Source: Gammaproteobacteria bacterium (lineage in GTDB: Bacteria; Pseudomonadota; Gammaproteobacteria; S012-40). Taken from it: a stretch of DNA of 64,000 nt. The translations under genes were made by a program, and so were the position numbers. The notes beneath the pieces were generated by a model that saw only the letters and a list, made by a program, of their open reading frames with translations, did no database searches and was not told the DNA's origin. The stretch spans positions 10,511 through 74,510 of the forward strand of contig JAOUJM010000001.1 in NCBI GenBank assembly GCA_029883265.1, given 5' to 3'. Shown piece after piece: positions 703-46,980 of this stretch; position 1 is the stretch's first letter; the number at the start of each line of letters is the position of its first letter.

Positions 703-703
703 T

Positions 704-1108: not shown

Positions 1109-1303
1109 TTAATCGGTTGCACCCAAATACCAGATCATAAACTCATAGAACCCATCCCATTTTGCAGGGATTTCGCCATTCACAAAACGATCTCTAGTTG
1201 CTAGCTCAAAGTCCCAGACCCTGCCTGTAATCTTGTCATACAAATAGCAACCTTCTCCCTCTGCAGTAGTGAAGCATATATAGTTTTCTGGTACTTTCCA
1301 GAT
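1109..1303 (-). pseudogene. 3' fragment of an immunity-like gene (no start codon), fused directly behind the stop of module O14
   Basis: Own translation after the O14 stop, same frame: VIWKVPENYICFTTAEGEGCYLYDKITGRVWDFELATRDRFVNGEIPAKWDGFYEFMIWYLGATD*. No ATG/GTG/TTG start available. Confidence 0.5.
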
Positions 1304-1306
1304 GAC

Positions 1307-1699: not shown

Positions 1700-1707
1700 C
1701 CACTAGT

Positions 1708-2172: not shown

Positions 2173-2603
2173 TACTTACTCCCTCCAAATATGGTCTGCT
2201 TCTCAACAGCATAAAATGGGCTAAAACCCTGATTATGAGGATTACCTATATCAATGATTGTGTACCCTTCAGATTCAATCTTCTGAGCCCAAGCTTTGTT
2301 CGCCTGATACATTTCAGTTTTAACAAGCTCAGGATTAGTCAACCTACGACCACCTTCGGTTAACCTCTCGAATTCTTTGCGTGCTGAACGAGGAATCATG
2401 TCACCATCAAAAAGTTCTACATCGTAGCCTTTCTTTTGGAGCACAGCAGCATAATCTCTTACACCATTGATTTTATTATTTCCCATCGCTCTACCAATCA
2501 CAGCGACTTTTCCGTTATCACCCTGAGCAATCCTCTGTGCTTTTAGGCCGTCTACTTCAAGCGATCTAATGCTACCTAAATCGAAGAGTTTCTTGTTTGG
2601 AAC
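2172..2603 (-). CDS. Orphan toxin C-terminal module O13 (no own start); family unknown
   Basis: ORF 2172..2501 extends in frame to the junction: (D)VPNKKLFDLGSIRSLEVDGLKAQRIAQGDNGKVAVIGRAMGNNKINGV.... The junction overlaps the TGA of the upstream gene (TGATGTTCCAAAC). Confidence 0.65.
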   Translation of the reverse strand, partial: VPNKKLFDLGSIRSLEVDGLKAQRIAQGDNGKVAVIGRAMGNNKINGVRDYAAVLQKKGYDVELFDGDMIPRSARKEFERLTEGGRRLTNPELVKTEMYQANKAWAQKIESEGYTIIDIGNPHNQGFSPFYAVEKQTIFGGSK

Positions 2604-2604
2604 A

Positions 2605-2880
2605 TCAAACTATTTCAGTTTTTATCCTTTTGACACACTCCGCTAAAGCTCTATAGCTTGGGGGTTGAACGCAATAGGCATCAGATACATTTCGTGAAAA
2701 ACCAAGAGCTTTGTCTGATATATCGTCGACATTCCCACTCTTCAGTGCTTCCAAAAGTGCTTCAGCTGTCGCCACGATATTCATCAATTCTTCCCGATCC
2801 TCGGAATTTGAAGTATTTATTGCGTCTCTTCTGTAGAGAGCTAAGGTCGTCTTGAGTAATTCAATAATGTCATTTTGCAT
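2605..2880 (-). CDS. Putative immunity protein of module O12
   Basis: 91-aa helical ORF; ATG overlaps the stop of the O12 toxin (TAATG). Confidence 0.6.
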   Translation of the reverse strand: MQNDIIELLKTTLALYRRDAINTSNSEDREELMNIVATAEALLEALKSGNVDDISDKALGFSRNVSDAYCVQPPSYRALAECVKRIKTEIV

Positions 2881-3320
2881 TAATTTAACTCCTCAATTAT
2901 TGCTCTCGGGCCTTGAGCATTGTAAGTTTGCTGTCCTCCTCCAATTAGGTTCGGCTTTGGCTGCGGCGCTACTGTACCTTGAAACACGGTTGTTCCGGGC
3001 TGATATTTTACAACAGCAGCCTTGGTTACCTGGTTGTTCGGTAGAGCCAAAATCCGTATTCGATCCTCAATTTTCTCAATCCATTGGGGAGTGGACCATC
3101 TACCTCCAAGTTTTGCTCCACCTTTTAACCCATCAAAGTATCGAAATTCTACTAATTCACTGTTGAGTGTTTTTACTCTAAAGGTCTCTAACTCAAAAGC
3201 CTTTATGAGTTGATTTCTTTCTGAGGGTAGTAAATCTTGCCTAGTTTCTCTAAGGATAGATCTAGCCTGTCTGATATTTGCCGCCGCTTCGGATCTGATC
3301 CCTGCACTGTCTGGAACAAC
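2880..3320 (-). CDS. Orphan toxin C-terminal module O12, TNT-like (NAD+ glycohydrolase-type) candidate; not in ORF track because it has no start codon
   Basis: Own translation directly after the TAG of 3321..3542: VVPDSAGIRSEAAANIRQARSILRETRQDLLPSERNQLIKAFELETFRVKTLNSELVEFRYFDGLKGGAKLGGRWSTPQWIEKIEDRIRILALPNNQVTKAAVVKYQPGTTVFQGTVAPQPKPNLIGGGQQTYNAQGPRAIIEELN*. The R-Y-x-D-G...G-R-W-S-T-P...LALP...Y-x-P-G...G-x-V-A-P...GGGQQ-x-Y pattern resembles the TNT domain. Confidence 0.6.
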   Translation of the reverse strand, partial: VVPDSAGIRSEAAANIRQARSILRETRQDLLPSERNQLIKAFELETFRVKTLNSELVEFRYFDGLKGGAKLGGRWSTPQWIEKIEDRIRILALPNNQVTKAAVVKYQPGTTVFQGTVAPQPKPNLIGGGQQTYNAQGPRAIIEELN

Positions 3321-3542
3321 CTATTTTATTTCTTCTACACGTACCCCGAGCTCCCTTAACCTAGAAAAAACTGCGTCAGCCAAGCTTTCATCAGAAATAG
3401 GCAAATCATACTCTCGGCCGTCCTCGTTCGTAAAACAAAGCATTTCAGAATAAGGAGTAACTTCGATATAAAACCGACCAATCTCAACACCAGTTTCAGC
3501 TATAAATTTATCAGCTAAATCTCTCATATCTTCATTCAGCAT
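3321..3542 (-). CDS. Putative immunity protein of module O11
   Basis: 73-aa ORF. Start overlaps the O11 toxin stop; its own TAG abuts the next junction. Confidence 0.6.
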   Translation of the reverse strand: MLNEDMRDLADKFIAETGVEIGRFYIEVTPYSEMLCFTNEDGREYDLPISDESLADAVFSRLRELGVRVEEIK

Positions 3543-4069
3543 TATTTTGCACCTCCTGTACGAGGTGCCTTGCCGAACCCTGGATAATAGATTGTATTGT
3601 CAGCATTGCCTGTACCCCAGAAAATTCTTGTTGGCTGCGGTTTAGCCAAAGGGTTTTGTTGCAACTGCCTAAAATATCTTGCATTAACTAAATCCATATC
3701 TTTTAGAGATGGCCATATTTGTGTAGCAGTTTCATTCGGATGAACATGACCAATCAATCTAGAATCACGCGGAACTGGGCTAGTCCAAGCATTGCCACTG
3801 TATAGCCTCTTAACCAATGTCCCATCGCCTAATCTTTCAGTGGTCAACGCAAACTCGACGTTTCTTCCATCAAGCCTGCCTAACTCATAGACATCGCCAA
3901 ACCGAATCGACCTATCCGTTAACGTTACACCTTGAGTTCCTGGTAGAGCTCCAGTTTGACGTAACTCAGCCATCGATATATGTGAACCCAGGCCCTCAGT
4001 ATGCCTAAAGCCATTAGAGTCTACTTTACCGGCCTGATGTAAAACATCGAAAGCACTGTCTGGAACAAT
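3542..4069 (-). CDS. Orphan toxin C-terminal module O11, JAB/MPN-like HxH...S..D motif (paralog of O1)
   Basis: ORF 3542..3973 extends in frame to IVPDSAFDVLHQAGKVDSNGF.... Motifs VEFALTTE ... IGHVHPNETATQIWPSLKDMD. Confidence 0.55.
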   Translation of the reverse strand: MVPDSAFDVLHQAGKVDSNGFRHTEGLGSHISMAELRQTGALPGTQGVTLTDRSIRFGDVYELGRLDGRNVEFALTTERLGDGTLVKRLYSGNAWTSPVPRDSRLIGHVHPNETATQIWPSLKDMDLVNARYFRQLQQNPLAKPQPTRIFWGTGNADNTIYYPGFGKAPRTGGAK

Positions 4070-4070
4070 A

Positions 4071-4361
4071 CTACTTGGCTTCTATGAAAGCTCTTTCTGC
4101 TTTTGCTATGTCCTCAGCTAACTTCGAATCAAATGGCCAACTATCTGCTATCGCATGTGTAAGGCCTAAGTTCCGCTGACTCTTTTCTGGTAAAGAACCC
4201 GAATTCAAAGTGTCTAACATCTTCTGAAGCTTCTGTTTAAAAGCATCCTTCTGTACTTTTGGTACGTTGGCTAGTTTAGGATCAGGAGAGCTAGATAGCT
4301 CTCGATCCAATGCCTCCATAGCAGATTTGACCAGCTTAGTTGCCTGCTCTATTGAACTCAT
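4071..4361 (-). CDS. Putative immunity protein of module O10
   Basis: 96-aa ORF immediately after the O10 toxin stop. Confidence 0.6.
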   Translation of the reverse strand: MSSIEQATKLVKSAMEALDRELSSSPDPKLANVPKVQKDAFKQKLQKMLDTLNSGSLPEKSQRNLGLTHAIADSWPFDSKLAEDIAKAERAFIEAK

Positions 4362-4799
4362 TTATGGCTCCAATAAGTCGTTTGTATCTAATATATATTT
4401 CTGAATTTGACTGCCTTCAACACCTACTCCCATTGAAGATGCACGCCCTTCAAGAATTTTAGTATTAGGCCTAATTTGGAATTGCTTCATGTAGGTCATC
4501 TGATTCCATTCTGGTTTTAATGCTAGATTTTGTCTTGAAGCAGGGAAAGTTTCGAACAGGTAACGACCTTTCTCCCACGCTTTCACATTATCGTAATACC
4601 TGATACCAAATTCGCTATCTGTTGCTTGTCTCAAGTTGAGAGTCTTAATATCAAAACTCTCTAGAACTTGCTTCCTGATATCTCGTGGCACTCCAGCATT
4701 TTGTAAGAACTGCGATGCTTCCTTAACCCCTGCGTATCTTTGACCAAGTACGCCCTCTAATTCAGCCGTAGAGATGTTGTCGGCTTTGTTTGGAACTAC
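4362..4799 (-). CDS. Orphan toxin C-terminal module O10, TNT-like candidate
   Basis: ORF 4362..4691 extends in frame to VVPNKADNISTAELEGVLGQRYAGV.... Motifs IRYYDN..GRYLF...LALKPEWN...FQIRPNTKILEGRASSMGVGVEGSQIQKYI align with O12/O7/O3/O0. Confidence 0.5.
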   Translation of the reverse strand, partial: VVPNKADNISTAELEGVLGQRYAGVKEASQFLQNAGVPRDIRKQVLESFDIKTLNLRQATDSEFGIRYYDNVKAWEKGRYLFETFPASRQNLALKPEWNQMTYMKQFQIRPNTKILEGRASSMGVGVEGSQIQKYILDTNDLLEP

Positions 4800-5191
4800 T
4801 AATTAGGTAACTGCTTTACTAATGCATCGAAGTTCTGCTTAAGTTTTATCGCAATTTCACTGAGCTGTTCCTCGTCGCTCATAGGCGTGTCAGGAACTCC
4901 AGCTAGTAACTCCTCTATCGATAACTGCTCCCCGTCAGATATCAATGAGTTCAAATATGACCACTCGGCATTATCTAATTCTTCATTGCTTGCTTCGATA
5001 GTGCCGATCAAACAATTTACTTCCCCATCCCTTTCGGATTGATAAAAACATAACTTACAGAGTGGGGAAGAATAAAAAACTAGGGATTTATTACCACCAT
5101 CCAAATCTAAAGTTTCGTCTAGTTTAAAACCCTTGGCAGAAAAGAAATCTTCCAAGGCCCTACGCACTTTTCTCTGAAAATCGATAGTCAT
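4799..5191 (-). CDS. Putative immunity protein of module O9
   Basis: 130-aa acidic ORF overlapping the O9 toxin stop by 4 nt. Its TAG overlaps the first G of GTAGTTCCAAAC. Confidence 0.6.
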   Translation of the reverse strand: MTIDFQRKVRRALEDFFSAKGFKLDETLDLDGGNKSLVFYSSPLCKLCFYQSERDGEVNCLIGTIEASNEELDNAEWSYLNSLISDGEQLSIEELLAGVPDTPMSDEEQLSEIAIKLKQNFDALVKQLPN

Positions 5192-5664
5192 TGTTTGTCA
5201 GCCTTGATCCAAGAATTACCATCTCTCACATAACCATAATTCTTGGCGTTGGTTTCAAGATATTTAATCTCCATCGCCGTGAAGCTTTTTGGTCTATTAG
5301 TTAAAACTTCTCTGATTGTTTCGCCATGGAGATCAATTCGACCAACGCCACGCTCTAATTGACCATGAAGGAATTGTTCATTAACAGACCAAGCTTTTGC
5401 TCTACCTTCTGTCTTGCTTAAACCATTGGTGAGTTTTGAGAAAAAGCTGGAGTCCGTCTCAAACCATACTCCACCATTAGCCTTTGCCTCACCGATATAC
5501 CCACCATTGTCAACCCACTTGCCCAAAACTACACGATTTGAATTCTGATTAACATGGGTGGACATTTCTGCTATTTGTCGAGCATACTGATCCGCATTAG
5601 TGCCCGATGTATTGCGTAATCCATTAATCGCATCATTCAGAGAGAGCTTGTTTGGAACAAATAA
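5188..5664 (-). CDS. Orphan toxin C-terminal module O9; family unknown (related to O13/O14)
   Basis: ORF 5188..5565 extends in frame to LFVPNKLSLNDAINGLRNTSGTNADQYARQIAEMSTHV..., preceded by TGA. Confidence 0.6.
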   Translation of the reverse strand, partial: LFVPNKLSLNDAINGLRNTSGTNADQYARQIAEMSTHVNQNSNRVVLGKWVDNGGYIGEAKANGGVWFETDSSFFSKLTNGLSKTEGRAKAWSVNEQFLHGQLERGVGRIDLHGETIREVLTNRPKSFTAMEIKYLETNAKNYGYVRDGNSWIKADKQ

Positions 5665-5675
5665 TCAGCTAGTAG

Positions 5676-6059
5676 TTAGCTGTAGTACTTATACAAATCA
5701 GAATCTTCCCACTCTTTCTCATAAACCGCAAGAACCCTGCTTAATGCATCTCGAACTCTTAAATCTGAGCTATTCGACATTTCCTGCAGAACTGATAGCT
5801 TAATTTCGTCCCATTTTAGTTCTCTCATGCAAAACTCAAGAATTTCAATAGGCCATTTTTCTTCTTTTACTATCGTTTTAAAATTCTCGACAAGTTCTTC
5901 ACGACTATTAGAATTGGACTGTACAAACTGGAGTATTTGTAACAAATAGGGCTCAAGTTCATCCGTGCCGTCAGTTTTTTGCCATGCAGACTCTGCGGCT
6001 TGTACTAAGGTCCAGAATTCATCTGCAACTTTCATGATCATTAATCCTTCTTTACCCAT
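5676..6059 (-). CDS. Putative immunity protein of module O8
   Basis: 127-aa helical acidic ORF overlapping the end of the O8 toxin. Confidence 0.6.
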   Translation of the reverse strand: MGKEGLMIMKVADEFWTLVQAAESAWQKTDGTDELEPYLLQILQFVQSNSNSREELVENFKTIVKEEKWPIEILEFCMRELKWDEIKLSVLQEMSNSSDLRVRDALSRVLAVYEKEWEDSDLYKYYS

Positions 6060-6846
6060 TCACCGCCACGAGGAAGTGTTGAATCAAACCTCCAGACTTT
6101 CTCTATATATTTGTTCGTGGTATCAAATCCTAGTGCTTGAAACGCTTTCTCAGTTGCCTTTTGTGCAGATTGCCCATGGGGCTGATAATGACCCGAAGTG
6201 TTGTCGATATATTTCAACTCGCCATTTACAGCTTTGACCTCGCCGGCAGCAATTACAGGACGATTGTTGGCAATATCAATATGACCGCCACCAGGCGCTT
6301 TCCTGGATTGTTTACCAAGCAGCAAAGTGCCATCCTCGAGTACTACATAATTGGCTTTTTGGTTAATCTCAGTAAATCTATTCGGATTTATAAGGTTAGC
6401 CGGACCAACGCTATCTTCAGGAAATTTATTCGTGAACACTGAAGTTTTGTTGTCTGGAACAAATCCGTCTACCTTGCGTAGTTTACCCAACATAGAGGAC
6501 CCAGCCAAGGTTAAAGCAAAATCAACTGGAGATTCTGGGATCAACATGTCGAACAATTGCGCACCTACAAACGCTCCAGGACTTAAATTCTTGAATGCAA
6601 AATGCTCCATTGAGTTTTTAACTTGTGATTTACCACTCCTCATATCGCTGGTAAATTTGACAGAATTTTCATAGATATTTCTAAGTATTGGATCTTCTAT
6701 CAAGTCACTGAGCTTATTAATATCTTGAATATCAGTGTCAACTCGCCATATTTTTGCACCGTTTTCATCAGAGCCAATACTATCTGAAACATCAGCTCTA
6801 ACAGGACCATGTTCATTTTTCGCAAGCTGTAATCCGTCCAGTGATA
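6041..6846 (-). CDS. 5'-truncated toxin 3' region O8: ~130-aa pre-toxin segment + FVPDNK junction (6449-6463) + unknown toxin domain; cut by the IS66-type element
   Basis: ORF 6041..6868. The first 7 codons (MRSLGRL) are encoded by the IS66 left IR, so the native sequence starts at 6846. Toxin part: ...GGGHIDIANNRPVIAAGEVKAVNGELKYIDNTSGHYQPHGQSA... Confidence 0.6.
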
Positions 6847-6869
6847 GTAAGCGTCCCAAACTCCGCACC
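6847..6869. repeat. IS66-type left terminal inverted repeat (element A)
   Basis: GTAAGCGTCCCAAACTCCGCACC. A GTAAGCG start is typical of IS66-family ends. Matches the 10478-10500 complement at ~19/23 positions. Confidence 0.75.
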
Positions 6870-6930
6870 TTCCCAGTTCGCTTAAGATCCGTTAGCCTGT
6901 TTCTGTGTAAATTACCGGCAGGAGCAAGCC

Positions 6931-7290
6931 ATGAACGATCTCACTCAATCATCCATCAAAAACATTCGCACGGATAAACGCAGCAAGGGCCCTGAGTATT
7001 GGCAGGCGCATATAGAGGCCATGAAACAAAGTGGTCTATCAAAAACCGCGTACTGTAAACAAAACAATCTTTCGACGGTGACATTTTTTAAATGGGAAAA
7101 GAAACTCGCCAAGGCCTCGGCTTTGTTTGTACCTGCGAAGTTGGAGATGCCGGTGTCTCCAACCTCATCCAACGAGATGATTCGGATTGATCTACCCAAT
7201 GGCTGTGTGATTTCCTTGCCGGTATCGTGCTCACCCGCAGAGGGTTTACGTTGGATTGAGACCTTGATGCGTGTTTCATGCTCAAGCTAG
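6931..7290 (+). CDS. tnpA: IS66-family accessory protein TnpA (orf1)
   Basis: 119 aa, first gene of a three-ORF set. Stop overlaps tnpB start. Paralog at 18817..19173. Confidence 0.85.
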   Translation: MNDLTQSSIKNIRTDKRSKGPEYWQAHIEAMKQSGLSKTAYCKQNNLSTVTFFKWEKKLAKASALFVPAKLEMPVSPTSSNEMIRIDLPNGCVISLPVSCSPAEGLRWIETLMRVSCSS

Positions 7291-7634
7291 ATCAAGAGAT
7301 TCAGATTTACTTCGCGATTAACCCGATCAACATGCTGAAAAGCTTTGACGGTTTAGCAGCCTTGGTGGTGGATGTGATTCAACAAAATCCCCTATCAGGG
7401 CATTTGTTTGTGTTTCGTAATCGAGCCGCTGATAAAATTAAACTACTGATCTGGGATCGCAATGGCTTTACCATCTACTATAAAAGACTCGAACGCGGTC
7501 GCTTTAAGTTTCCTGAGTTGGATGACTGCACTCATCTTTCGATCACTCGTCAAGAACTGGATTTATTGTTTGATGGTATTGACTTCACTCAACTCAAACG
7601 CCTACCCACACTTCACTATAAATCAGTGATTTGA
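7278..7634 (+). CDS. tnpB: IS66-family TnpB (orf2)
   Basis: 118 aa; MLKLDQEIQIYFAINPINMLKSFDGLAALV...LFVFRNRAADKIKLLIWDRNGF is the conserved IS66 Orf2 pattern. Confidence 0.9.
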   Translation: MLKLDQEIQIYFAINPINMLKSFDGLAALVVDVIQQNPLSGHLFVFRNRAADKIKLLIWDRNGFTIYYKRLERGRFKFPELDDCTHLSITRQELDLLFDGIDFTQLKRLPTLHYKSVI

Positions 7635-7664
7635 TCCGTCTGATACTTGCATTACAATAGTGCC

Positions 7665-9185
7665 ATGCAAGGACGCACGAAAACACATTATTCCTACTCT
7701 GAACTCAAAGCTTTAGTCGATGAACTTCAAAAAGAAGTGCAGCTGCTTCGAGAGAAAAATCGTTTGTTACTGCATCGTCAGTTTGCCGCGAAGTCCGAAC
7801 AGACTACCGATGATCAGTTGTCCTTGTTTGATGCGGATACTTCATCGTCCGAAGTAAATCAAAACAATGAAAAAAACAACAACATCGTCGTACTGGCACA
7901 TCATCGCAAGAAACGACAACGACTGACGTTTTCTGATGACCTACCCAAACGTAGAGTTGAGATTGATCTGGATGAACACGATAAGACCTGCGATTGTTGC
8001 GAAGCACCACTGACGCATATTGGTGAAGACATCACTCGAAAGATTGAATTTATCCCAGCGAAAGTCCAAGTCGTCGAATACGCTCGATTAAAATATGCGT
8101 GTAAATCCTGTGAAGACACCATTAAACGCCCACCCTTACCGAACTTTATCTTACCAAAAAGTTTCGCCACACCAAGTTTACTCGCGCATTTGATTGTGAG
8201 TAAGTTTGGTGATGGCTTACCTTTGTATCGCATTCAACAACAACTGGCCCGTCAAGGTGTGCATTTACCGCGTTCCACCATGAGTACACTGTTACTCAAA
8301 GCCGCTGATTTACTCGATCCGGTTTATAAATTAATGATCAAGCAAGTATTGTCCGGCCCGCGTATTTGGACAGATGACACGATTCTTCCCAAACAAAACG
8401 ATGATCCGAGTCGAAACAAAATCATTCAATCCAGATTATGGGTGTATATTGGTGGACCTCTTAAAGATCCACCCTTGGTCATTTTCGATTACACCAGCAC
8501 TCGATCCTCGAAATGGCCGAAGGACTTATTGTCTGATTACCAAGGCTACAAACATGCCGATGGTTATGGCGGCTATAAATCGTTGCATGATACAGGTAAA
8601 ATTCACTATGTGGCGTGCTGGAGTCATGCGCGGCGAAAGTTTTTTGAGGCCTCATTACTCACCGAGCAAACCGGTAAAGCCAAGACCATGATTAAATACA
8701 TCAAACTGCTTTATAAGATTGAAACCGCTTGTGAAAAATATGGTAATAAAAAACGTAAACGGTTTCGACGAAGATATGCCACACCCATACTCAACACCAT
8801 CAAAGCCTATGCCGATCAACATGCGCCGCATATTCCACCCAAAACCAGTTTGGGTAAAGCGTTTACTTATTTGCTTAATCAATGGCATGGACTGGTTCGT
8901 TATCTCGATGCCGGTCACCTAACCATTGACAATAACCTGGCCGAACGACACATCCGACCCATTGCCGTGGTTCGAAAAAGTTTTCTGTTTGTCGGCTCGG
9001 ATCGCGGTGGTCGTGCGGCTGCGATTTATTATTCGGTGTTGGGGTCGTGTAAAAGTTTGAGGGTGAATCCTTATAAGTATTTGATGGATTTGTTTGAGCG
9101 GTTGCCAAATTTTGAATCAAAATTGGAGTTAAGCAATTTGATGCTAACTCGCTGGACTAAACAAGATGACGAACGAAAAATCTGA
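7665..9185 (+). CDS. tnpC: IS66-family DDE transposase TnpC (orf3)
   Basis: ORF 7647..9185. ATG at 7665 preferred by alignment with the paralog start (MQ..T.YSYSEL). N-terminal leucine-zipper region, CxxC...CxxC zinc motif (CDCCEAP...CKSCED), DDE core (WTDDT...HADGYGGY...NNLAERHIRP). Confidence 0.9.
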   Translation: MQGRTKTHYSYSELKALVDELQKEVQLLREKNRLLLHRQFAAKSEQTTDDQLSLFDADTSSSEVNQNNEKNNNIVVLAHHRKKRQRLTFSDDLPKRRVEIDLDEHDKTCDCCEAPLTHIGEDITRKIEFIPAKVQVVEYARLKYACKSCEDTIKRPPLPNFILPKSFATPSLLAHLIVSKFGDGLPLYRIQQQLARQGVHLPRSTMSTLLLKAADLLDPVYKLMIKQVLSGPRIWTDDTILPKQNDDPSRNKIIQSRLWVYIGGPLKDPPLVIFDYTSTRSSKWPKDLLSDYQGYKHADGYGGYKSLHDTGKIHYVACWSHARRKFFEASLLTEQTGKAKTMIKYIKLLYKIETACEKYGNKKRKRFRRRYATPILNTIKAYADQHAPHIPPKTSLGKAFTYLLNQWHGLVRYLDAGHLTIDNNLAERHIRPIAVVRKSFLFVGSDRGGRAAAIYYSVLGSCKSLRVNPYKYLMDLFERLPNFESKLELSNLMLTRWTKQDDERKI

Positions 9186-9193
9186 ACCGGCTT

Positions 9194-9748
9194 TCAATTA
9201 CTAAGTCGAAGCACTTTACCCGAGGATACTTTGAAATGACTAGTAACGATTTTTTGTTCGCCGTTTATGATATAAATATAGTTTGCAATGATAGTTTTAT
9301 TTTCTATTTTTATGTCCCTAAGATTGCTAACTATGGCGTCACCATCTAGCAACCTAAAGCTGCTATCACGAAATTGAAAAATTAGTAAATTATAAAGATT
9401 TCCGCCACTATTGTAATACACGAGCAATTCTGGAGTTGGTTCTTCATCCATGTTCTCTTGTGCAAAATCAACGGAATGACCCTCTAGCATATAAATTATC
9501 TTAGGATAGCCATTTTCAATTGTTAACAAATAAGTTTCGTTTGTGGGTAGGCAATCATCAGCATCATCAATGTAGAATATTTTTAAATCACGGATTTCCA
9601 TGCTCTTCTTTGAATGAATATGAAACTCCATTTTGTTTGAGCCAGACTCAAATTTGTTGCACTTTTCCACAGATGAAAAACAATTAGTAATTCCGGCAAT
9701 ACTTATTAAAATCACGTATAAAGCATGTCTTATATGAGCCATTTTCAC
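9194..9748 (-). CDS. Cargo gene of element A: secreted/periplasmic immunity-like protein
   Basis: 184 aa with N-terminal hydrophobic signal (ALYVILISIAGITNCFSS). Immediately downstream of the cargo toxin domain (stop TGA 9745-9747). The likelier start is ATG at 9742. Confidence 0.6.
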   Translation of the reverse strand: MKMAHIRHALYVILISIAGITNCFSSVEKCNKFESGSNKMEFHIHSKKSMEIRDLKIFYIDDADDCLPTNETYLLTIENGYPKIIYMLEGHSVDFAQENMDEEPTPELLVYYNSGGNLYNLLIFQFRDSSFRLLDGDAIVSNLRDIKIENKTIIANYIYIINGEQKIVTSHFKVSSGKVLRLSN

Positions 9749-10500
9749 GGTTTACCTTGTGTCTTAAGATAGTTTTCAATAAATTGCACGGTGGTTCCAT
9801 GCCCCTTAGTCGTATTGTAATAGACTTTCCAGTCCTGCGCATAAGAGTGAGCACCAGGTGATTCAATGAAAGATAGTTGACTTCTATATCTCCAATATTG
9901 TAAACCAGCCATCGCTGCAGCATATTTATCATTATTTCGGAGTTCAGAATGCAAATCACCACCATTTGTGAAGCTCATTACTAACTTTGCTATTTTGGGT
10001 TTATATGCAAGGACATTTGCCCATATATCATCATGCGTATTCGGTTCCATTTGAAACAAACCTTTTGCAGGGCCATTACTAAATTGATCCCTGTATTTAA
10101 GCGAACTTTCTTGCGCAGCAGTACCAACTAGAACTTCTTGGAATTCGGTTCGGTATTTTGAAAAAGTTTTGTCTATTTTCCCGAGCTCATCAATGGCAGG
10201 TTTAATCGAGTTAGTAAGCAAAGCATCTGCTTTCTTCTTGAAATGAAGATTATTATTAAACGTATATTTCTCAAGTTCATCCAAGTCAATTTTATACCCT
10301 GATGAATCGAACAAGGACCCCTCCCCAAACGTTCCATCTTGAGGCGCTAAGCTAAGAAGATACTTCGCTACTTCAGTATTGTCACCCCAATCAACGTCGG
10401 GCAACTCGTTTTTATCAAGAACCGCGTTTTGGCCCACACTGGCCAGCATGTTTGAACCAACTGGGTTATTTTTCCTAGGGGCAGAGTTTTGGACGCTTAC
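9745..10500 (-). CDS. Cargo toxin domain of element A: lytic-transglycosylase/lysozyme-like (GH23-type) peptidoglycan hydrolase candidate, reading frame opens inside the right IR
   Basis: ORF 9745..10449 extends in frame to the IR tip: (VVP|)VSVQNSAPRKNNPVGSNMLASVGQ.... Motif VGTAAQESSLKYRDQFSNGPAKGLFQMEPNT resembles the SLT catalytic E-S...G-L-x-Q signature. Confidence 0.6.
   Translation of the reverse strand, partial: VSVQNSAPRKNNPVGSNMLASVGQNAVLDKNELPDVDWGDNTEVAKYLLSLAPQDGTFGEGSLFDSSGYKIDLDELEKYTFNNNLHFKKKADALLTNSIKPAIDELGKIDKTFSKYRTEFQEVLVGTAAQESSLKYRDQFSNGPAKGLFQMEPNTHDDIWANVLAYKPKIAKLVMSFTNGGDLHSELRNNDKYAAAMAGLQYWRYRSQLSFIESPGAHSYAQDWKVYYNTTKGHGTTVQFIENYLKTQGKP
10478..10500. repeat. 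IS66-type right terminal inverted repeat (element A), translated as VSVQNSAP on the minus strand
   Basis: GGGGCAGAGTTTTGGACGCTTAC. Its complement is GTAAGCGTCCAAAACTCTGCCCC. Confidence 0.75.
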
Positions 10501-10505
10501 TGGAA

Positions 10506-11168
10506 CTACAAATAGTTAGATTTTTCCAATTCCCACCATTCCAAAAATAAACTCCAGTCATACCAGCTAACAACGGTACCATCGTAAGGCTCGCTTATCC
10601 TAGTACTACAAAATTGCTTACCAGCCAAAGAACTTATTTTTTCTAATGCTAAATCTCTAAGCTCGTAAAAATAATCGCTGTTCATCCCTTTCTCTGCAGC
10701 ATAATCATCTTGCCTAAAATGTATCAAAGGAGATATTTCTCCTTTTTTTGCATAAGTATAATAATGATACAAAGCTATCCTTCTATACCCCAAATCATCT
10801 GAAATAAGATAATCCGCCATTATTTCTCTATAATTAGGATAGTTATCCTTTAACCAAACAAATAACTCTAAAGCTTGATAACAAACATATTTACTTTCAT
10901 GCTTTAAAAGTTTTTCCAATCTACCCACTAAATATTTAAAAAAATCAGTACCGAATGTACCAGGCTTATTCTTTTCTAGAAGCGCGTTTAGAAAAAGAAA
11001 CCCTGTTGATATATCAGCTTGGTCATCAGACGATAAACAATTATGTACCCCCTGTATTACGACTGAGTTTATACCCAGCTTTTGAATATCCGAATGGGTA
11101 AGAGTACTAGTATCCACACCAGTAGCATCTGATAGCAATTTTCTCAGTTCCTCTGATGGGTTCATCAT
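10506..11168 (-). CDS. Putative immunity protein of module O7 (helical-repeat-like)
   Basis: 220-aa ORF overlapping the O7 toxin stop by 4 nt. Its TAG lies inside the residual junction GTAGTTCCA (10501-10509). Confidence 0.6.
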   Translation of the reverse strand: MMNPSEELRKLLSDATGVDTSTLTHSDIQKLGINSVVIQGVHNCLSSDDQADISTGFLFLNALLEKNKPGTFGTDFFKYLVGRLEKLLKHESKYVCYQALELFVWLKDNYPNYREIMADYLISDDLGYRRIALYHYYTYAKKGEISPLIHFRQDDYAAEKGMNSDYFYELRDLALEKISSLAGKQFCSTRISEPYDGTVVSWYDWSLFLEWWELEKSNYL

Positions 11169-11596
11169 GGTCTAGTTATCCATTTAAGCTCATTGACAAA
11201 TAATGATTCAGTATCAATTTGTTTCACAAAATCAGAATGAAGTTCTTTCGGAATATATGTTTGAGTACCTGATCCACCTTTCACTCCTCCCTGCCAAGCT
11301 TGAAGCCCAGGCTTGATCTCAAACACTCCAAGTTGCTCGGCATTATTTCCCCATGCTTTGATATTAAACAACTCTTCTGCATCCATTGAGTTCAATGGCT
11401 TCATATTACTAAAGAATTCTCCAGTACCGCGTTGACCTTGTCTCTGAGCTTGGAAATACAGACCTGGCTTAACTTCCCCAAACCCTTTAGTTGAAAAAGA
11501 ATCAAGCTTAGATGCACTTATATTTCCAGGTGCAATCAGGCTCGGTGATGGACCTGACTCAGGTATTACAACTGAAGATTTATTGTTTGGAACTAC
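11165..11596 (-). CDS. Orphan toxin C-terminal module O7, TNT-like candidate
   Basis: ORF 11165..11404 extends in frame to VVPNNKSSVVIPESGPSPSLIAPG.... Motifs QRGTGEFFSN...IKAWGNN...VFEIKPGLQAWQGGVKGGSGTQTYIP. Confidence 0.5.
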   Translation of the reverse strand, partial: VVPNNKSSVVIPESGPSPSLIAPGNISASKLDSFSTKGFGEVKPGLYFQAQRQGQRGTGEFFSNMKPLNSMDAEELFNIKAWGNNAEQLGVFEIKPGLQAWQGGVKGGSGTQTYIPKELHSDFVKQIDTESLFVNELKWITRP

Positions 11597-12021
11597 CTTT
11601 TTATAGCAGTTCCTTTAACAATTATATCCTCACCTACTTTCTCAATTGAATCTATAGAGTTAATTACATAGTTTGCAACGTCATTATCTTCATCTAAAGC
11701 AATATCAAGAATATCGAACTTATGGTAAGCATAAAGATATTCAAATAAAGATGCGCCTTCGATATCTATGAATTCAGATAATAACGGATAATCAGTAGCC
11801 CCCGGATATGGGGGCTCAAAATCACCAGCAATCTCGTCATCTTCTCTAAGTTCTTCAACACCATCATTGTACAAAGGTGTGAGCTTTTCTATAAAAACTC
11901 CTTTAGCAAATTTAATTTCGTAGCGGAAAGTCTCAAAGCCATCCCCTTTTCCGAAGCTAAATTGGCTAAACGTTAACGCATTGGAATCAATGTTCTTACC
12001 ATCTACACTATATAAAATCAT
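11593..12021 (-). CDS. Putative immunity protein of module O6
   Basis: 142-aa acidic ORF 2 nt after the O6 toxin stop. Its stop is the TAG inside GTAGTTCC. Confidence 0.6.
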   Translation of the reverse strand: MILYSVDGKNIDSNALTFSQFSFGKGDGFETFRYEIKFAKGVFIEKLTPLYNDGVEELREDDEIAGDFEPPYPGATDYPLLSEFIDIEGASLFEYLYAYHKFDILDIALDEDNDVANYVINSIDSIEKVGEDIIVKGTAIKR

Positions 12022-12023
12022 CT

Positions 12024-12539
12024 TTAACTTCCCGGAGGTAGAATAATAATTTTGCCATCAGGCGTTATCGTAATTGATCCAGATGGAATATATGGTTGAC
12101 CAGCTTTCAAGTCTCCACCAGCTCTAGTCCCAGATCTTTGGAAAAATTGCTCTGGCGTTGTCATTGTTTCTATAGTTTTTGTACTTTTACCAGGAACAAT
12201 AGTAAGTTCTTCCATTTTTAAGAAATTTGGATTATCAGCTGCGGCTTTATTGACGTTTTTAATTATTCTTTGAGCTTGCTTTTCAGATAAGCTACCGAAA
12301 CCGACATCAATATCACTACCTTTGCCGAAATCGCCTCTTATTCGGCTACCACCAAATACTACTGTTGAATTTCTTTTTAGCCCCTGCTCTAAAATTAACG
12401 TAGCTTGCTCAGTTGTCAAATCAGGTACATGCTTTGATAAAAATGCAGACTGTTCTGCAATGCCTGATGTGGTTAATGTAGTTTGCTCAGGATATGCATT
12501 AAATACAGATTTATCTGTCCAGCGTGTGTTTGGAACTAC
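12024..12539 (-). CDS. Orphan toxin C-terminal module O6: Pol-beta-type nucleotidyltransferase fold candidate
   Basis: ORF 12024..12419 extends in frame to VVPNTRWTDKSVFNAYPEQ.... Motif VVFGGSRIRGDFGKGSDIDVGF fits hG[GS]-x9-13-DhD. Confidence 0.6.
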   Translation of the reverse strand, partial: VVPNTRWTDKSVFNAYPEQTTLTTSGIAEQSAFLSKHVPDLTTEQATLILEQGLKRNSTVVFGGSRIRGDFGKGSDIDVGFGSLSEKQAQRIIKNVNKAAADNPNFLKMEELTIVPGKSTKTIETMTTPEQFFQRSGTRAGGDLKAGQPYIPSGSITITPDGKIIILPPGS

Positions 12540-12985
12540 TTATCTGTATAATACCATTCTAGAAAATCGAAAAAACTTTTGTATATCGGTTGCAACATCC
12601 TCTTGGAGAGTTTTTCCTCTTCTCCCCAGCTCACATCAAATACTTCATCGCTAACTTTGCTATAAAAATAGCTCCCCTCACCTTCAATAGACGAAATACG
12701 TAAATAATCTTCCATTCCTGGCAGTGAGCTATATTCACCTGATTCAGCATCTTCAATAATTTTTTCCAAAGTGCTAATTTCGCTACCGTTACCCACTACT
12801 GGGATAGCCACCAAAGTATAAAAATCAATAAAGGCAGAGTCAGCATTTCTTATTCCCAACTCTTTCTCAAAATAATTCTTGTCATCTTGCGTAACTATAA
12901 ATTTTCCATCTTGTGCAGAAAAAACGCCGTCATAACACCACTTCAGGTTAGACTTATAGAAGTTTGAGACAATGTCCGGTAACAA
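12536..12985 (-). CDS. Putative immunity protein of module O5 (SUKH/SMI1-KNR4-like by eye)
   Basis: 149-aa ORF 1 nt after the O5 toxin stop. Its stop is the TAG inside GTAGTTCC. Pattern FEKELGI...FIDFY...WGEE is reminiscent of SUKH immunity proteins. Confidence 0.55.
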   Translation of the reverse strand: MLPDIVSNFYKSNLKWCYDGVFSAQDGKFIVTQDDKNYFEKELGIRNADSAFIDFYTLVAIPVVGNGSEISTLEKIIEDAESGEYSSLPGMEDYLRISSIEGEGSYFYSKVSDEVFDVSWGEEEKLSKRMLQPIYKSFFDFLEWYYTDK

Positions 12986-12986
12986 T

Positions 12987-13544
12987 TTAACGACCTCCGC
13001 TATTCGTTATCTCGATTAGTCGCTGTTGCCAATAGATTTTTCTGTCAATATCAAAAGCTGATCTATCAACAGGATATGTTGGATGTTGACTTTGAGTTGG
13101 CCCAGATCCCGCGCCATTCATTTCACGCCCTCTATTGGTTTTGTATGGGTGCAATGCCTCACCTCCTTGGCCTGTTTTTGACCGATGCGTTAAATCACTT
13201 AGTTCAAACAGAGGACCGTTCGCATTTTGGCGACTAAGATGCAATTCAATGCGAGACTGTACACCATTCTTCAGAACATAAGGAGCATTTCCCACTTCCA
13301 ATAGCTCCCTATTTGTAGTTGTATAGGTCCTTTTGGTTTTTGGATTGGTAATTTTTACCACTAAATCGGGATCAATTTCTTGTTGAAAGACTTTGTATTT
13401 AATCCCTGTCCCATTTACTGGGGCTACCCACACAGCTTCGGTTTTAAAATAACTAGGATTCTTGGCGTTTTTCGCCCGTAGCGCAACAAAGTCTATCTTA
13501 TTCGGTTCTACTGCTCCCTCAAGTTCATATTTGTTTGGAACTAC
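12987..13544 (-). CDS. Orphan toxin C-terminal module O5: possible HNH/EndoVII-fold nuclease (degenerate LHH-type)
   Basis: ORF 12987..13433 extends in frame to VVPNKYELEGAVEPNKIDF.... Motif SRIELHLSRQNANGPLFELSDLTHRS. Confidence 0.4.
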   Translation of the reverse strand, partial: VVPNKYELEGAVEPNKIDFVALRAKNAKNPSYFKTEAVWVAPVNGTGIKYKVFQQEIDPDLVVKITNPKTKRTYTTTNRELLEVGNAPYVLKNGVQSRIELHLSRQNANGPLFELSDLTHRSKTGQGGEALHPYKTNRGREMNGAGSGPTQSQHPTYPVDRSAFDIDRKIYWQQRLIEITNSGGR

Positions 13545-14254
13545 TTATTAAAAAGCGCCTTCCTCAAGACTTTCTGAGCTTCTGCCTCTTCACCTGTAGA
13601 CTCTTTAAAGCATTCATCCTGTACATCAAGTTTAAGTACGCTTCCTAAATCAGAGACACATTCCATAGCAAAATTATCTGCCCCTATATCCCTCAAAAGA
13701 TCCTTACTCATCCACATAGTAGAACCAACACATTCAATATACCCATTCTTCAGATCCCATCGCCCTGGGTTCCTAGAAATATCAATCACTTCACTTTCAA
13801 GAGGAAATGGCAAACCATTGCTCTTCTTCGGTAGATTCGAATGATCTCGTCCTTCGGACTCATAGTAAGCAATATCTTCCATGTTTTGCCAACGGTCATA
13901 TTCTCCATCATATAACCTAGCCTGAACAAAAAACGGGTCATTTACTATTTGAGTAACCCATTTTTCTGCATACTCTTTAGACGCAGCTAGATTCTTTATA
14001 TCTAACCTGGAGAAATCCAGATCTGCTATATATGAAAACTCAATACTCCCCCCATCAAGCTCAATAAAGAAGCTATCGGCCTTATTCTTAAGAAGAGTTT
14101 CCGAAACATCAGTAAAACCTAGTTCTTTGCCAGTGAATCCATCCGCCACTTTTTTATCGGCATATATTTGTTTAAATTCTTCGGTAAGCTTATTCCATAA
14201 CTTATAAGCTTCAGCGTAAGCTTTACCTCTAAGAACAATTTCAATTTGTACCAT
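13541..14254 (-). CDS. Putative immunity protein of module O4
   Basis: 237-aa ORF starting 5 nt after the O4 toxin stop. Its stop is the TAG inside GTAGTTCC. Confidence 0.6.
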   Translation of the reverse strand: MVQIEIVLRGKAYAEAYKLWNKLTEEFKQIYADKKVADGFTGKELGFTDVSETLLKNKADSFFIELDGGSIEFSYIADLDFSRLDIKNLAASKEYAEKWVTQIVNDPFFVQARLYDGEYDRWQNMEDIAYYESEGRDHSNLPKKSNGLPFPLESEVIDISRNPGRWDLKNGYIECVGSTMWMSKDLLRDIGADNFAMECVSDLGSVLKLDVQDECFKESTGEEAEAQKVLRKALFNK

Positions 14255-14259
14255 GATAA

Positions 14260-14676
14260 TTATTCACCAAACTCTTTAATAATTACTGGAATATTTCGCT
14301 GCTTGCCATACTCAATTAAATGCTTCGCATCATTAAAACCACCTGGCTGAACCCTAATATCCAATATTTTCGTTGCCGGAACGTCGGAAACGGTAATGGT
14401 AGTCTTTTGCAAGTGGTCGATATGAGATCTCATATCATACTCCCAAGATTTACCACCAGTATTAACCGTTTTCAGACTAACAACATTGTTTCCTTGTTGG
14501 AAATCAATCGAAGGGAAGTTATTAGACTTAAATGGTTCGCCAGTTTTTGGGTTAATAGAGTTATCGGAACGAGCCCAATCTTTATAATCTGTTTCTGTAA
14601 GGTGTGACTCAATCTGTCTACCACGAACCTTCGGATCTAGATCCCAAACTTCTCTGCCTAACTTGTTTGGAACAAC
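14260..14676 (-). CDS. Orphan toxin C-terminal module O4: PD-(D/E)xK restriction-endonuclease-fold candidate; absent from ORF track (no start codon)
   Basis: Own translation directly after the TAA of 14677..15075: VVPNKLGREVWDLDPKVRGRQIESHLTETDYKDWARSDNSINPKTGEPFKSNNFPSIDFQQGNNVVSLKTVNTGGKSWEYDMRSHIDHLQKTTITVSDVPATKILDIRVQPGGFNDAKHLIEYGKQRNIPVIIKEFGE*. E...FPSIDF...VSLKT resembles E/D...D...(E/S)xK. Confidence 0.55.
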   Translation of the reverse strand, partial: VVPNKLGREVWDLDPKVRGRQIESHLTETDYKDWARSDNSINPKTGEPFKSNNFPSIDFQQGNNVVSLKTVNTGGKSWEYDMRSHIDHLQKTTITVSDVPATKILDIRVQPGGFNDAKHLIEYGKQRNIPVIIKEFGE

Positions 14677-15075
14677 TTATCGCACAGTTACACTCCAAGA
14701 AAAGTCTGGATATCCATCATTTTCTGTGACTCCTAAGACCAGCTTTTTGGCACCTATCACGCACCTAATTTCGCCTAACTCTTCACTTATCTCATTAGGA
14801 TGTAGCAGATCAACGAACTGCCTATAAAATGGCTCGGTATTTTTCGACTTCAAAATTAGAGTTAGCGCGTCTTTTAAACCAGGACTATTACTCTCCACAA
14901 CAGCATTTGGAGTATCAACAGACAGCATAACTGGATTCATGCTTGAAGACAGAACACGTCCTATAAACAACTCACACAAAGATAACGCGCTTTCTGACGC
15001 CTCATTCAATTTGGGCGGAAGAATTATATCGACGGTTTTTTTGTTTTCACCAGTATTCATAGCACCTTCTTCCAA
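14677..15075 (-). CDS. Second small protein downstream of module O3 (immunity-like)
   Basis: 132-aa ORF overlapping the 15057..15293 ORF end. Its TAA abuts the next junction. Confidence 0.5.
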   Translation of the reverse strand: MEEGAMNTGENKKTVDIILPPKLNEASESALSLCELFIGRVLSSSMNPVMLSVDTPNAVVESNSPGLKDALTLILKSKNTEPFYRQFVDLLHPNEISEELGEIRCVIGAKKLVLGVTENDGYPDFSWSVTVR

Positions 15076-15293
15076 CCCCCTCGAAAAGCTTGGTCAGGAA
15101 ACTCTAATACCCATAATTGTCCACAGTGTTTGCACTTGTATTGAATTTTTATAAATGGCCCTGAATGATCTATTTGTCCGTAACTTTTCAACTCGCCCAT
15201 TTCAACCATCTGGGCAATCCGCTGCCGAAATTCAACGAATTCCTTCTCAGAATTAAACCGTTCTTGGCACAACTCGCAGACTACACAACTCAT
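15057..15293 (-). CDS. Zinc-ribbon small protein, putative immunity protein of module O3
   Basis: 78 aa; CVVCELC...CKHC cysteine pairs. Overlaps the O3 toxin stop by 4 nt. Confidence 0.55.
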   Translation of the reverse strand: MSCVVCELCQERFNSEKEFVEFRQRIAQMVEMGELKSYGQIDHSGPFIKIQYKCKHCGQLWVLEFPDQAFRGGWKKVL

Positions 15294-15793
15294 GGCTTCA
15301 ACCTAAAGATGTGGGTATCCTCTATGGGTACTGGATCAAGCAAGAATTGAGTCCATCCTCCCTGTCCAGCTTCTGGATAGGAATTTGTATAAACCTCCCA
15401 CCCTCGTGTTCCTTCATTTCCAAATGGCCTTGCGACACTAAATCCGCGGACCTTATCTACGGGGATCGCGACACCATAAGTTGGTTCTCCCCACTCAGGC
15501 TTGATTTGAGCACCGCGAGCAATAGCACCACTGGAGTGCGAAAATTCTGTTGTTGAGTAGCCACGAACACTTCCATAACGCAGAGACTTATCAAGACCGT
15601 CTTCAGATAGATATCTAAAAATAAAATCCTGACTTTCTATAGACTCGGAGAGACGGCGTTCGTAGTTCAACTGCGAAAGCTTGTCAATCCTACCTGCACG
15701 CTCTTGCGGGCTTAGGTGACCATACTTTTCTTTCAGTGCTAATGAGCTTGCTCTCGCATCCAGAACAACCTGCGGTGCATTGTCTGGAACAAA
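15290..15793 (-). CDS. Orphan toxin C-terminal module O3, TNT-like candidate
   Basis: ORF 15290..15670 extends in frame to FVPDNAPQVVLDARASSLALKEKYGH..., directly after the TGA of 15794..16264. Motifs FRYLSEDG...GYSTTEF...IKPEWGEPTYGVAIP...AGQGGWTQFLL. Confidence 0.5.
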   Translation of the reverse strand, partial: FVPDNAPQVVLDARASSLALKEKYGHLSPQERAGRIDKLSQLNYERRLSESIESQDFIFRYLSEDGLDKSLRYGSVRGYSTTEFSHSSGAIARGAQIKPEWGEPTYGVAIPVDKVRGFSVARPFGNEGTRGWEVYTNSYPEAGQGGWTQFLLDPVPIEDTHIFRLKP

Positions 15794-46944: not shown

Positions 46945-46980
46945 CTATTTTCGCCTTCCTGACCTAGTGATCTTGCTCAA

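Follow-up and report, generated by a model that had tools for sequence, protein, structure and literature searches.

A probable passenger-carrying IS66-family transposon with a toxin gene and a presumed immunity gene in a polymorphic-toxin locus

Introduction

How do two insertion sequences of the IS66 family come to hold toxin genes in the midst of a polymorphic-toxin locus, and do these genes move with them? This question is raised by a stretch of 64,000 nucleotides from a gammaproteobacterial metagenome-assembled genome (assembly GCA_029883265.1, contig JAOUJM010000001.1, positions 10,511 to 74,510), which we refer to as the window and in which all coordinates are counted from the first base. 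The locus contains a gene for a giant YD/RHS-repeat toxin, an array of orphan toxin cassettes and two IS66-family elements, A (6847-10500) and B (18733-22839). We consider it probable, at roughly 0.8, that A represents, as one of several copies, an IS66-family transposon whose passengers are a toxin gene and an immunity-type gene and which would act by the mechanism proposed below. Of the two copies, A is less informative than B.

Polymorphic toxin loci are thought to diversify mainly via homologous recombination with orphan cassettes or with horizontally acquired DNA. Work by Poole in 2011 and by Koskiniemi in 2014 is said to have described orphan C-terminal/immunity cassettes of Rhs and CdiA toxins and the displacement of toxin tips by recombination. 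In known tip swaps, the new tip enters by homologous recombination through common upstream sequence. At the locus studied here, a DDE transposon appears to do the diversification directly.

Results

Element A ends in IS66-type inverted repeats and encloses two convergent genes

Element A comprises 3654 bp and is built from a left inverted repeat (IRL), the genes tnpA, tnpB and tnpC, two cargo open reading frames (ORFs) on the opposite strand and a right inverted repeat (IRR). Its features are as follows.

6847-6869: IRL of A, GTAAGCGTCCCAAACTCCGCACC; the first 100 nt match the IRL regions of B and of contig L002 at 96% identity
6931-7290, plus strand: tnpA, IS66 accessory protein, 119 aa, intact (NCBIfam NF047593, 5.8e-20)
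7278-7634, plus strand: tnpB, IS66 Orf2, 118 aa, intact (PF05717, 9.4e-34; NF033819, 1.2e-29)
7647-9185, plus strand: tnpC, DDE transposase, 512 aa counted from a TTG, with a probable ATG start at 7665, intact
9194-9748, minus strand: cargo gene 2, encoding 184 aa with a hydrophobic segment at the N-terminus; there is a 4-nt overlap between its start and the toxin stop
9745-10500, minus strand: cargo gene 1, toxin ORF of 251 codons, open from the outer base of the IRR (VSVQNSAPRKNN..., VSVQNSAP)
9748-10239, minus strand: predicted lysozyme-like (GH23/lytic-transglycosylase-like) domain, residues ~88-251 of the toxin, assigned from motifs and fold
10478-10500: IRR of A, GGGGCAGAGTTTTGGACGCTTAC, the inverted copy, whose minus-strand reading is VSVQNSAP

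The transposase TnpC matches PF03050 over the full profile length (1.8e-84), contains zf-IS66, LZ_Tnp_IS66 and IS66_C domains and is recognised by NF033517 (4.2e-114); tnpA and tnpB overlap by 13 nt. The terminal inverted repeats of A begin GTAAGCG, and their first 10 nt are those of the inverted repeat of ISPsko1. Among Pseudomonas members of the family, GTAAGCGTCC is the terminus, and the ISPsko1 repeat reads GTAAGCGTCCGGCGAACTCACCTT (PMC12888890). The 23-nt end occurs four times in the window, as two IRLs with 3 mismatches and two identical IRRs, and not once in 100 shuffles; a repeat finder pairs 6846-6870 with 10477-10501. An earlier first-pass annotation, made from the letters alone, had placed an IRL at 6847 and an identical right repeat ending at 10500. 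Both ends are real, but identity holds elsewhere: the IRR of A equals the IRR of B exactly, and it is complementary to A's own IRL at 20 of 23 positions. The minus-strand codons of the IRR of A are GTA AGC GTC CAA AAC TCT GCC CC, i.e., VSVQNSAP.

No vestigial IRR was found after tnpC in A, in B or in a third element, C, described below; the best match carries 6 mismatches in 15 positions, which is the level of shuffled sequence. The first cargo ORF ends (9194) a mere 8 nt away from the tnpC stop (9185). Because no IRR-like sequence follows tnpC, the distal IRR is the only right end of A, and both convergent ORFs lie inside the element, where they fill 9194-10500 between tnpC and this sole IRR. 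A scan for promoters and terminators returned fewer sites in A than in shuffles and is uninformative.

The first-pass annotation had called the transposition genes of A clearly paralogous to those of B with many substitutions, and had proposed a pairwise alignment to locate the boundary between backbone and cargo. In this alignment, the identity of A to B amounts to 86.8% across A nt 1-2260; similarity stops there and resumes in the last 33 nt, the only further stretch that the elements have in common. Amino-acid identity is 83.8% for the tnpA product and 87.5% for TnpC, and the ratios of nonsynonymous to synonymous substitution rates (dN/dS) are 0.18 (tnpA), 0.03 (tnpB) and 0.16 (tnpC). Since dN/dS lies at 0.03-0.18, both backbones are under purifying selection, and A and B are therefore diverged paralogues that are neither recent duplicates nor decaying. 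The lengths of A (3654 nt) and B (4107 nt) are both exact multiples of three, for which the chance is ~1/9.

Element B transposed together with its passengers

Element B is the sister copy of A and interrupts the gene of the giant toxin. The features that bear on this insertion are listed below.

17834-18732, minus strand: displaced original C-terminus of the giant toxin, with a TNT NAD-glycohydrolase-type domain (PF14021, 2e-20)
18725-18732: left copy of the target-site duplication (TSD) of B, CTGGCCAT, perfect over 8 bp
18733-22839: element B, 4107 bp, with IRL, tnpA/B/C, ankyrin-repeat gene and lipase-like toxin
21095-21823, minus strand: gene of B for an ankyrin-repeat protein
21847-22839, minus strand: lipase-like toxin of B, forming the C-terminus of the 6384-aa YD/RHS protein
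21847-41001, minus strand: gene for the 6384-aa YD/RHS-repeat protein, with DUF6531, RHS repeats and LysM domains
22840-22847: right copy of the TSD of B, CTGGCCAT, perfect over 8 bp

When B and one copy of its TSD are removed in silico, a single ORF of 6350 aa results (NGYGQ joined to EVDLPL), which ends at 17834 and closes with the TNT domain. Because of the 8-bp TSD and this restored ORF, we conclude that B entered the giant toxin gene by transposition as a 4.1-kb unit that comprised the cargo; judged from the sequence, the event displaced the TNT tip and put a lipase-type domain at the C-terminus of the giant protein, with the ankyrin-repeat gene behind it. Transposition of the unit with its passengers is thus shown by sequence for B alone. 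B and both of its flanks are present on one contig from another sample (L013), and the 6384-aa fusion ORF is reproduced in a further contig (L011). A third contig (L014) begins exactly at the outer IRR base of B; together with a B-type IRR beside a CRISPR leader in L001, it suggests that the end of B occurs in more than one context.

The toxin of B contains a GHSLGG motif and has PF26363-type relatives, several of which are located on RHS proteins. No start codon of its own precedes the domain. A homologue search with this toxin returned distant (33% or less) RHS-type lipase toxins only, and these are without VSVQNSAP.

Toxin/immunity cassettes that lack start codons form an array 3' of the giant gene, i.e., at lower window coordinates. 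They begin with the junction motif (V/F)VP(D/N)(N)K, which is encoded by GTAGTTCCAAACAA-like DNA and found at 13 sites; most of these follow, at a distance of a few codons, a stop that is either in frame or that of the preceding gene. Since the array thus has a short junction motif of its own (VVPNK), and since the 23-nt sequence encodes the peptide at the boundary between carrier and toxin domain in the giant protein, the 'IRR' could be taken for a toxin-family junction motif, comparable to VENN in CdiA, with the IS66 copies as ordinary 2.4-kb insertions beside cassettes. This view is already contradicted and we give it next to no weight. The 23-nt motif is the inverted complement of the IRL at 20 of 23 positions and begins with the IS66 terminus, no other right end follows tnpC, and the 8-bp TSD of B encloses IRL and 23-nt IRR alike, with excision restoring the ORF. 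Furthermore, the motif is found at 0 of the 13 orphan junctions, B-toxin homologues at RHS C-termini do without it, and in two contigs (L004 and L001) an end of this type adjoins a CRISPR leader, not a toxin gene. The first-pass annotation had allowed for the case that the match belongs to a longer homology shared by unrelated toxin genes; the GTAAGCGTCC terminus, the IRL partner, the TSD of B and the L004 context, in which no toxin gene lies outside, identify it as a true IS66 end.

The cargo of A: a predicted lysozyme-like toxin and a presumed immunity protein

A cargo gene convergent to tnpC and opening within the inverted repeat as VSVQNSAP had been described before, and ORF 9745-10500 on the minus strand is indeed open through the IRR. 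Its frame contains the terminal stop only, compared to 9 and 36 stops in the other two frames, and the first in-frame ATG is codon 18 (10449). Residues 1 to ~87 form a low-confidence linker to the lysozyme-like domain, in which G-T-A-x-Q-E131-S132, G147..Q150-M151-E152 (GxxQME) and Y228-N229-T230..G233 are invariant in 18 aligned sequences. The motifs E-S, GLxQ and YNxG characterise family-1 lytic transglycosylases, and the invariant motifs of the A toxin resemble them; by analogy, the E131-S132, GxxQME and YNT..G residues are predicted to be catalytic.

Relatives of the A toxin are few (22 detectable among 5.8 billion proteins). Those that were aligned are stand-alone proteins of 150-220 aa covering residues ~88-251, except for a near-identical 234-aa copy and one protein of 334 aa. 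In the AlphaFold2 (AF2) model, the core has a pLDDT (predicted local distance difference test) above 90 and the mean of 77.5 results from a disordered stretch of the first ~70 residues; the domain is modelled with a lysozyme-like alpha-helical fold, and the top matches found with Foldseek have weak E-values. The toxin has no Pfam match and misses the SLT threshold. Among 18 of its relatives, weak matches were obtained to SLT in 6 (best 1.9e-4) and to Phage_lysozyme2 in 9 (best 2.7e-4), and a search of the toxin profile against the PDB yielded nothing significant. The SLT-like call of the first-pass annotation is supported by fold and motif. As the Pfam SLT threshold is missed, we file the toxin as a predicted lysozyme-like peptidoglycan glycosidase, which may be a transglycosylase or a hydrolase, and assign no subfamily.

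The product of cargo gene 2 (9194-9748) begins MKMAHIRHALYVILISIAGITNCFSS, an N-terminus that is signal-like as judged by eye, without a predictor. Searches with Pfam/NCBIfam-type profiles gave no family match for it, and the single-sequence AF2 model (pLDDT 34) is unusable. We presume that it is a periplasmic immunity protein, given its position, the overlap with the toxin stop and its predicted compartment. The signal-like segment is the part of the earlier call, a signal-peptide protein with a secreted immunity role, that can be seen by eye; the immunity role itself rests on position.

A third element and other relatives

The closest other TnpC, at 65% identity, is P0025 of the following element.

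Element C: contig k141_724750 of the ENA (L004), from another metagenome

The IRR of C, CGGGCAGAGTTTTGGACGCTTAC, is located 3.26 kb beyond the tnpC stop. Beside it lies a 290-aa ORF in the same orientation as the toxins of A and B, followed by a 239-aa protein with a weak SUKH (SMI1/KNR4) match; a sequence search of the 290-aa product against the PDB was not significant, and an HNH-like motif was seen by eye only. Outside the IRR of C are a type I-F CRISPR leader and its array and no toxin gene. At L004 2215-3714, the cargo of C further contains two small ORFs, of which one has a signal-like N-terminus, and a gene resembling S26 signal peptidases (PF10502, 4e-30), which overlaps with the end of tnpC.

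The right ends of A, B and C agree without exception in their outer 21 nt only, and directly inward of these nothing is shared. Each of the three elements has, between its tnpC stop and the common 21-nt end, a gene pair unrelated to the other two, the pair of C being typed weakly. The idea of a family with exchangeable payloads, voiced in the first-pass annotation, is supported by this arrangement.

Contig L001 (Ga0224506) shares with L004 an identical junction of the IRR with GAGCTGCGAAAATATTC, and the two are 99.7% identical beyond it. Inside the IRR, L001 has 77 nt that are 100% identical to the cargo of B, and L004 has the cargo of C (compared stretches: L001 nt 1-99, L004 nt 5417-5516, window 22741-22839). 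The B-like stretch of L001 measures exactly 99 nt, which is a common assembler k; either an element or its cargo was replaced at one site, or the junction is an effect of the assembly graph at k=99.

A scan of metagenomes for the inverted-repeat pattern returned L001 and L002 only, and a scan of viral contigs found nothing. L002 (189-840) holds a decayed A-type copy flanked by GCGCTATC, in which IRL and tnpA are followed by a tnpB that breaks off after ~77 codons; no toxin gene adjoins it. On L005 (TnpC 60%), same-strand genes follow tnpC, with no recognisable IRR within 3.5 kb. Two more contigs, L006 (TnpC 48%) and that of P0026 (50%), were set aside as apparently ordinary IS66 copies without toxin cargo. 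TnpC is at most 40% identical to plasmid-borne IS66 transposases.

The two flanks of A stem from different genes

The sequences on either side of A differ, as had been noticed before: the left flank is CAGTGATA and the right one TGGAACTA, so that no 8-bp TSD accompanies this copy.

6041-6846, minus strand: left flank of A, 3' remnant of a different polymorphic-toxin gene, cut at CAGTGATA
10501-10509, minus strand: right flank of A, the first 9 nt (GTAGTTCCA, encoding VVP) of an orphan-cassette junction

The IRR of A abuts TGGAACTAC, which is GTAGTTCCA on the minus strand, so that V-V-P runs in frame into V-S-V-Q; the right flank overlaps the stop of an immunity-like gene (10506-11168). On the other side, ORF 6041-6846 continues the frame read out of the IRL. 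The proposal that this flank is the 3' part of another toxin gene is borne out by its residues ~130-267, for which we found 320 cluster representatives, nearly always at the extreme C-terminus of proteins of up to 5171 aa; the toxin-domain homology begins at an FVPDNK junction (~6450). The ~130 residues before FVPDNK have no relatives and no similarity to the corresponding part of the giant gene. Likewise, the pre-junction regions to the left of A and to the left of B show no similarity, hence no evidence for allelism.

The eight bases beside the IRL of A have the codon phases 1,2,0,1,2,0,1,2, the same as the TSD of B in its gene. Given the usual 8-bp duplication, the lost upstream junction of A would also have been in frame with VSVQNSAP.

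Two displaced toxin fragments belong to ORFs that begin within an IS66 copy. ORF 6041-6868 starts at a GTG (6868) inside the IRL of A and ORF 17834-18817 at a TTG (18817) located 85 nt inside B, and both read outward across the IRL (peptide ...RSLGRL). The orphaned tips of both fragments could still be translated.

Mismatched flanks might also stem from an assembly chimera, with a left half from one IS copy and a right half from another. The source is a metagenome-assembled genome, and in several samples the short-read contigs end within tnpC, a gene in which A and B resemble each other. We nevertheless regard such a chimera as highly improbable. Contigs L003 and L015 (GCA_029880205.1 / Ga0224501) reproduce window 624-8906, and contigs L007, L008, L009 and L010 (ENA, Logan and JGI assemblies) reproduce the side with array, IRR, cargo and tnpC. 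L003 (window 624-8906) and L007 (8081-20063), which come from different assemblies, overlap by 826 nt inside tnpC at 100% identity, a stretch in which B is ~10% different. In addition, A-type tnpA was seen only in the left context of A, in three samples, and B is self-consistent with its own TSD. Because six independent contigs reproduce the structure of A, its junctions are not an assembly artefact.

Proposed mechanism and its weighing

We propose that the elements consist of a transposition module (IRL, tnpA-tnpC) and a passenger module that takes up everything between tnpC and the only right end. The passenger would be an immunity-type gene plus a polymorphic-toxin C-terminal domain that reads outside-in from the IRR side, its frame being open through the IRR. 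The whole unit, bounded by IRL and distal IRR, moves with the usual IS66 8-bp duplication, as the sequence of B shows. If orientation and frame are right, a delivery-toxin gene that receives the unit reads across the IRR into the cargo toxin, as it does in B, and the old tip is displaced downstream as an orphan, again as in B; the incoming immunity gene would presumably protect the cell. A may first have inserted in frame into a second toxin gene. Homologous recombination with another copy, or else intramolecular transposition (adjacent deletion), would then have connected its right side with the orphan array, at the cost of the TSD and of the 5' portion of that second gene.

Was the cargo arranged for this purpose, or did IS66 copies trap orphan cassettes passively, so that the fusion of B and the orientation of the cargo are coincidental or one-off events and A is a decaying, immobile relic? 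Such accidental hitch-hiking we hold to be unlikely, although unrelated cargo such as fosZ is known from passenger-carrying IS66 elements, A is unfused and without a TSD, and a productive fusion is directly observed for B only. C, too, could be cited in its favour, with its in-frame stop and its extra unrelated genes, among them the S26 peptidase-like gene. Set against this, the toxin gene is nearest to the IRR, is oriented outside-in and shares the open IRR frame in 3 of 3 elements, the toxin domain of B has no start codon of its own, and cargo-specific sequence stands directly inside the 21-nt end in all three. Moreover, two independent insertion sites in toxin genes share the same codon phase, for which the chance is 1/6 each. 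From the toxin nearest to the IRR, an IRR open in frame, the missing start in B and the immunity gene behind, we infer a feature of the lineage, not an accident, by which the transposon would re-arm delivery toxins and bring immunity along. The first-pass annotation had gone as far as selection for productive fusions; as the present junction of A is unproductive, this argument draws on B and on the lost junction of A that would have been in frame.

Several observations speak against the mechanism that we prefer. One live fusion only, that of B, is at hand. The frame of A reads stop-LFVVPVSVQ; because this in-frame stop directly precedes LFVVP, A has no upstream translational fusion, and the continuity of VVP with VSVQNSAP stressed in the first-pass annotation is one of frame but is not productive. 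Upstream of the codon-18 ATG, the stop-free stretch of A amounts to 17 codons, so that the openness of the inverted repeat is weak evidence for A alone. In C, the 290-aa ORF shares the IRR frame (VSVQNSA) but has an in-frame stop 27 codons inside the IRR. Nor does the mechanism account for three unrelated cargos at one 21-nt end. No empty site was found for any copy, and the partner junctions of A, TGGAACTA followed by IRL and IRR followed by CAGTGATA, for which a search had been suggested, were not found in the window or in 16 loci. TnpC relatives and the inverted-repeat pattern are both absent from 185,579 representative genomes, which makes the lineage rare.

A is currently unfused to any carrier, its toxin domain is not the C-terminus of a large delivery protein, and it is a rearranged copy. 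Since it is without a TSD and the search for partner junctions was negative, the mobility and the history of A have to be read from B. Most likely, A is a product of IS66-IS66 recombination or of an adjacent deletion, as had been suspected before; the mismatched flanks and a precedent within the family favour this origin, and the missing partner junctions leave it unproven. In the precedent, established experimentally in Agrobacterium, recombination between directly repeated IS66 copies deleted the intervening DNA and left, as in A, a single IS66 copy with mismatched 8-bp flanks (PMC6778807). An identical product would result if the IRR end had moved into the VVP site by intramolecular transposition.

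On a broader reading, to which we would give even odds, this IS66 lineage consists of 'toxin-tip transposons' whose right inverted repeat evolved into an in-frame coding linker that grafts a toxin and its immunity gene onto resident giant toxins, the passenger being exchangeable against the 21-nt end and possibly replaced in situ, in view of the CRISPR-leader junction at which L001 and L004 differ in cargo.

Discussion

Comparison with known systems

Canonical members of the IS66/IS679 group measure ~2.5-2.7 kb, with the IRR shortly after tnpC. Those of Agrobacterium and E. coli resemble A and B in their three-gene organisation and in the 8-bp TSD (here that of B), whereas A has 3654 bp and no IRR remnant after tnpC. 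Much closer are the passenger-bearing IS66 elements (tIS66) such as ISPa75 (PMC12888890). Like A and B, these have the order IRL-tnpA-tnpB-tnpC with passengers between the DDE transposase gene and the IRR, inverted repeats that begin GTAAGCGTCC, 8-bp TSDs (here that of B) and a left part of ~2.3 kb that is common to relatives with different right parts. Downstream of the transposase gene, 7 of 25 Pseudomonas IS66 entries carry passengers, and for ISPa75-fosZ ten different 8-bp TSDs are on record (PMC12888890). In contrast to these elements, the passenger of A and B is a polymorphic-toxin C-terminal domain with a presumed immunity gene, and the toxin ORF is open through the IRR and in B is without its own start, so that insertion can make a translational fusion; in ISPa75, fosZ has its own predicted promoter between IRR and fosZ (PMC12888890). 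Passenger-bearing IS66 elements are thus already known, and it is the toxin-tip cargo and the in-frame logic that are new.

The locus resembles the Rhs/CdiA orphan loci in several respects: the carrier is a large YD/RHS protein, its C-terminal toxin is variable and has an immunity gene behind it, orphans that lack start codons form an array downstream, and a former tip is displaced and becomes an orphan. Unlike in known tip swaps, the tip of B came by DDE transposition with a TSD, and its boundary peptide is encoded by an inverted repeat. Polymorphic-toxin loci with orphan cassettes and nearby transposases are known, and a preprint lists IS66 among the families near PT-TG toxins. The full-text literature, with incomplete coverage, gave no report of an IS66 element with toxin/immunity cargo or of a toxin ORF read through an inverted repeat, nor of toxin-tip replacement by transposition with a TSD. 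Polymorphic toxin genes on a transposable element are known from Burkholderia thailandensis, where a new class of transposon is reported to carry a whole contact-dependent growth inhibition (CDI) system (PMC6350997); here, a toxin tip and an immunity gene alone are carried, in IS66, and delivery depends on the target gene.

Periplasmic immunity, as the signal-like N-terminus of the neighbour of the A toxin would allow, is found with Type VI peptidoglycan glycoside-hydrolase effectors (PDB 4kt3, an effector-immunity complex of Pseudomonas protegens; Tse3-Tsi3, 4luq). To these effectors, the A toxin has no detectable sequence similarity; its domain belongs to a small family of stand-alone proteins, mostly of 150-170 aa.

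If our proposal holds, a single transposition gave a 6384-aa YD/RHS toxin a new tip of the lipase type, brought in an ankyrin-repeat gene as presumed immunity and demoted the former TNT tip to an orphan. This would provide a testable mechanism for the movement of toxin tips between unrelated carriers and genomes, for the growth of orphan arrays and for the reshuffling of such arrays by IS-IS recombination, the state that A represents. It would also be a rare natural case of a transposon end serving as coding sequence that makes protein fusions, and possibly a tool for the in-frame delivery of domains.

Further observations at the locus

The 13 junction sites of the orphan array span window 1095-18250, with examples at 4786, 11583, 13531 and 17550. 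The motif is preceded by an in-frame stop, 0-3 codons away, at 11 of them, and in the two longer ORFs (6450, 18234) the junction motif is the start of toxin-domain homology. The DNA common to the orphan junctions amounts to ~14 nt only, which is short for homologous recombination. Two neighbouring orphan cassettes (957-1108 and 1548-1699) have in common a 152-nt N-terminal stretch at 97% identity, and from its sequence this stretch appears to be a recent local duplication within the array.

On the other side of the giant gene, a 450-nt direct repeat (98.9% identical) occupies 41065-41514 and 46980-47429. It duplicates the 3' end of a tetratricopeptide-repeat (TPR) gene (47101-48189) as ORF 41186-41545, which adjoins the start of the giant gene. 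The two copies flank three genes (42370-43845, 43877-44809 and 44815-46089) and may mark an island boundary beside a flagellar cluster.

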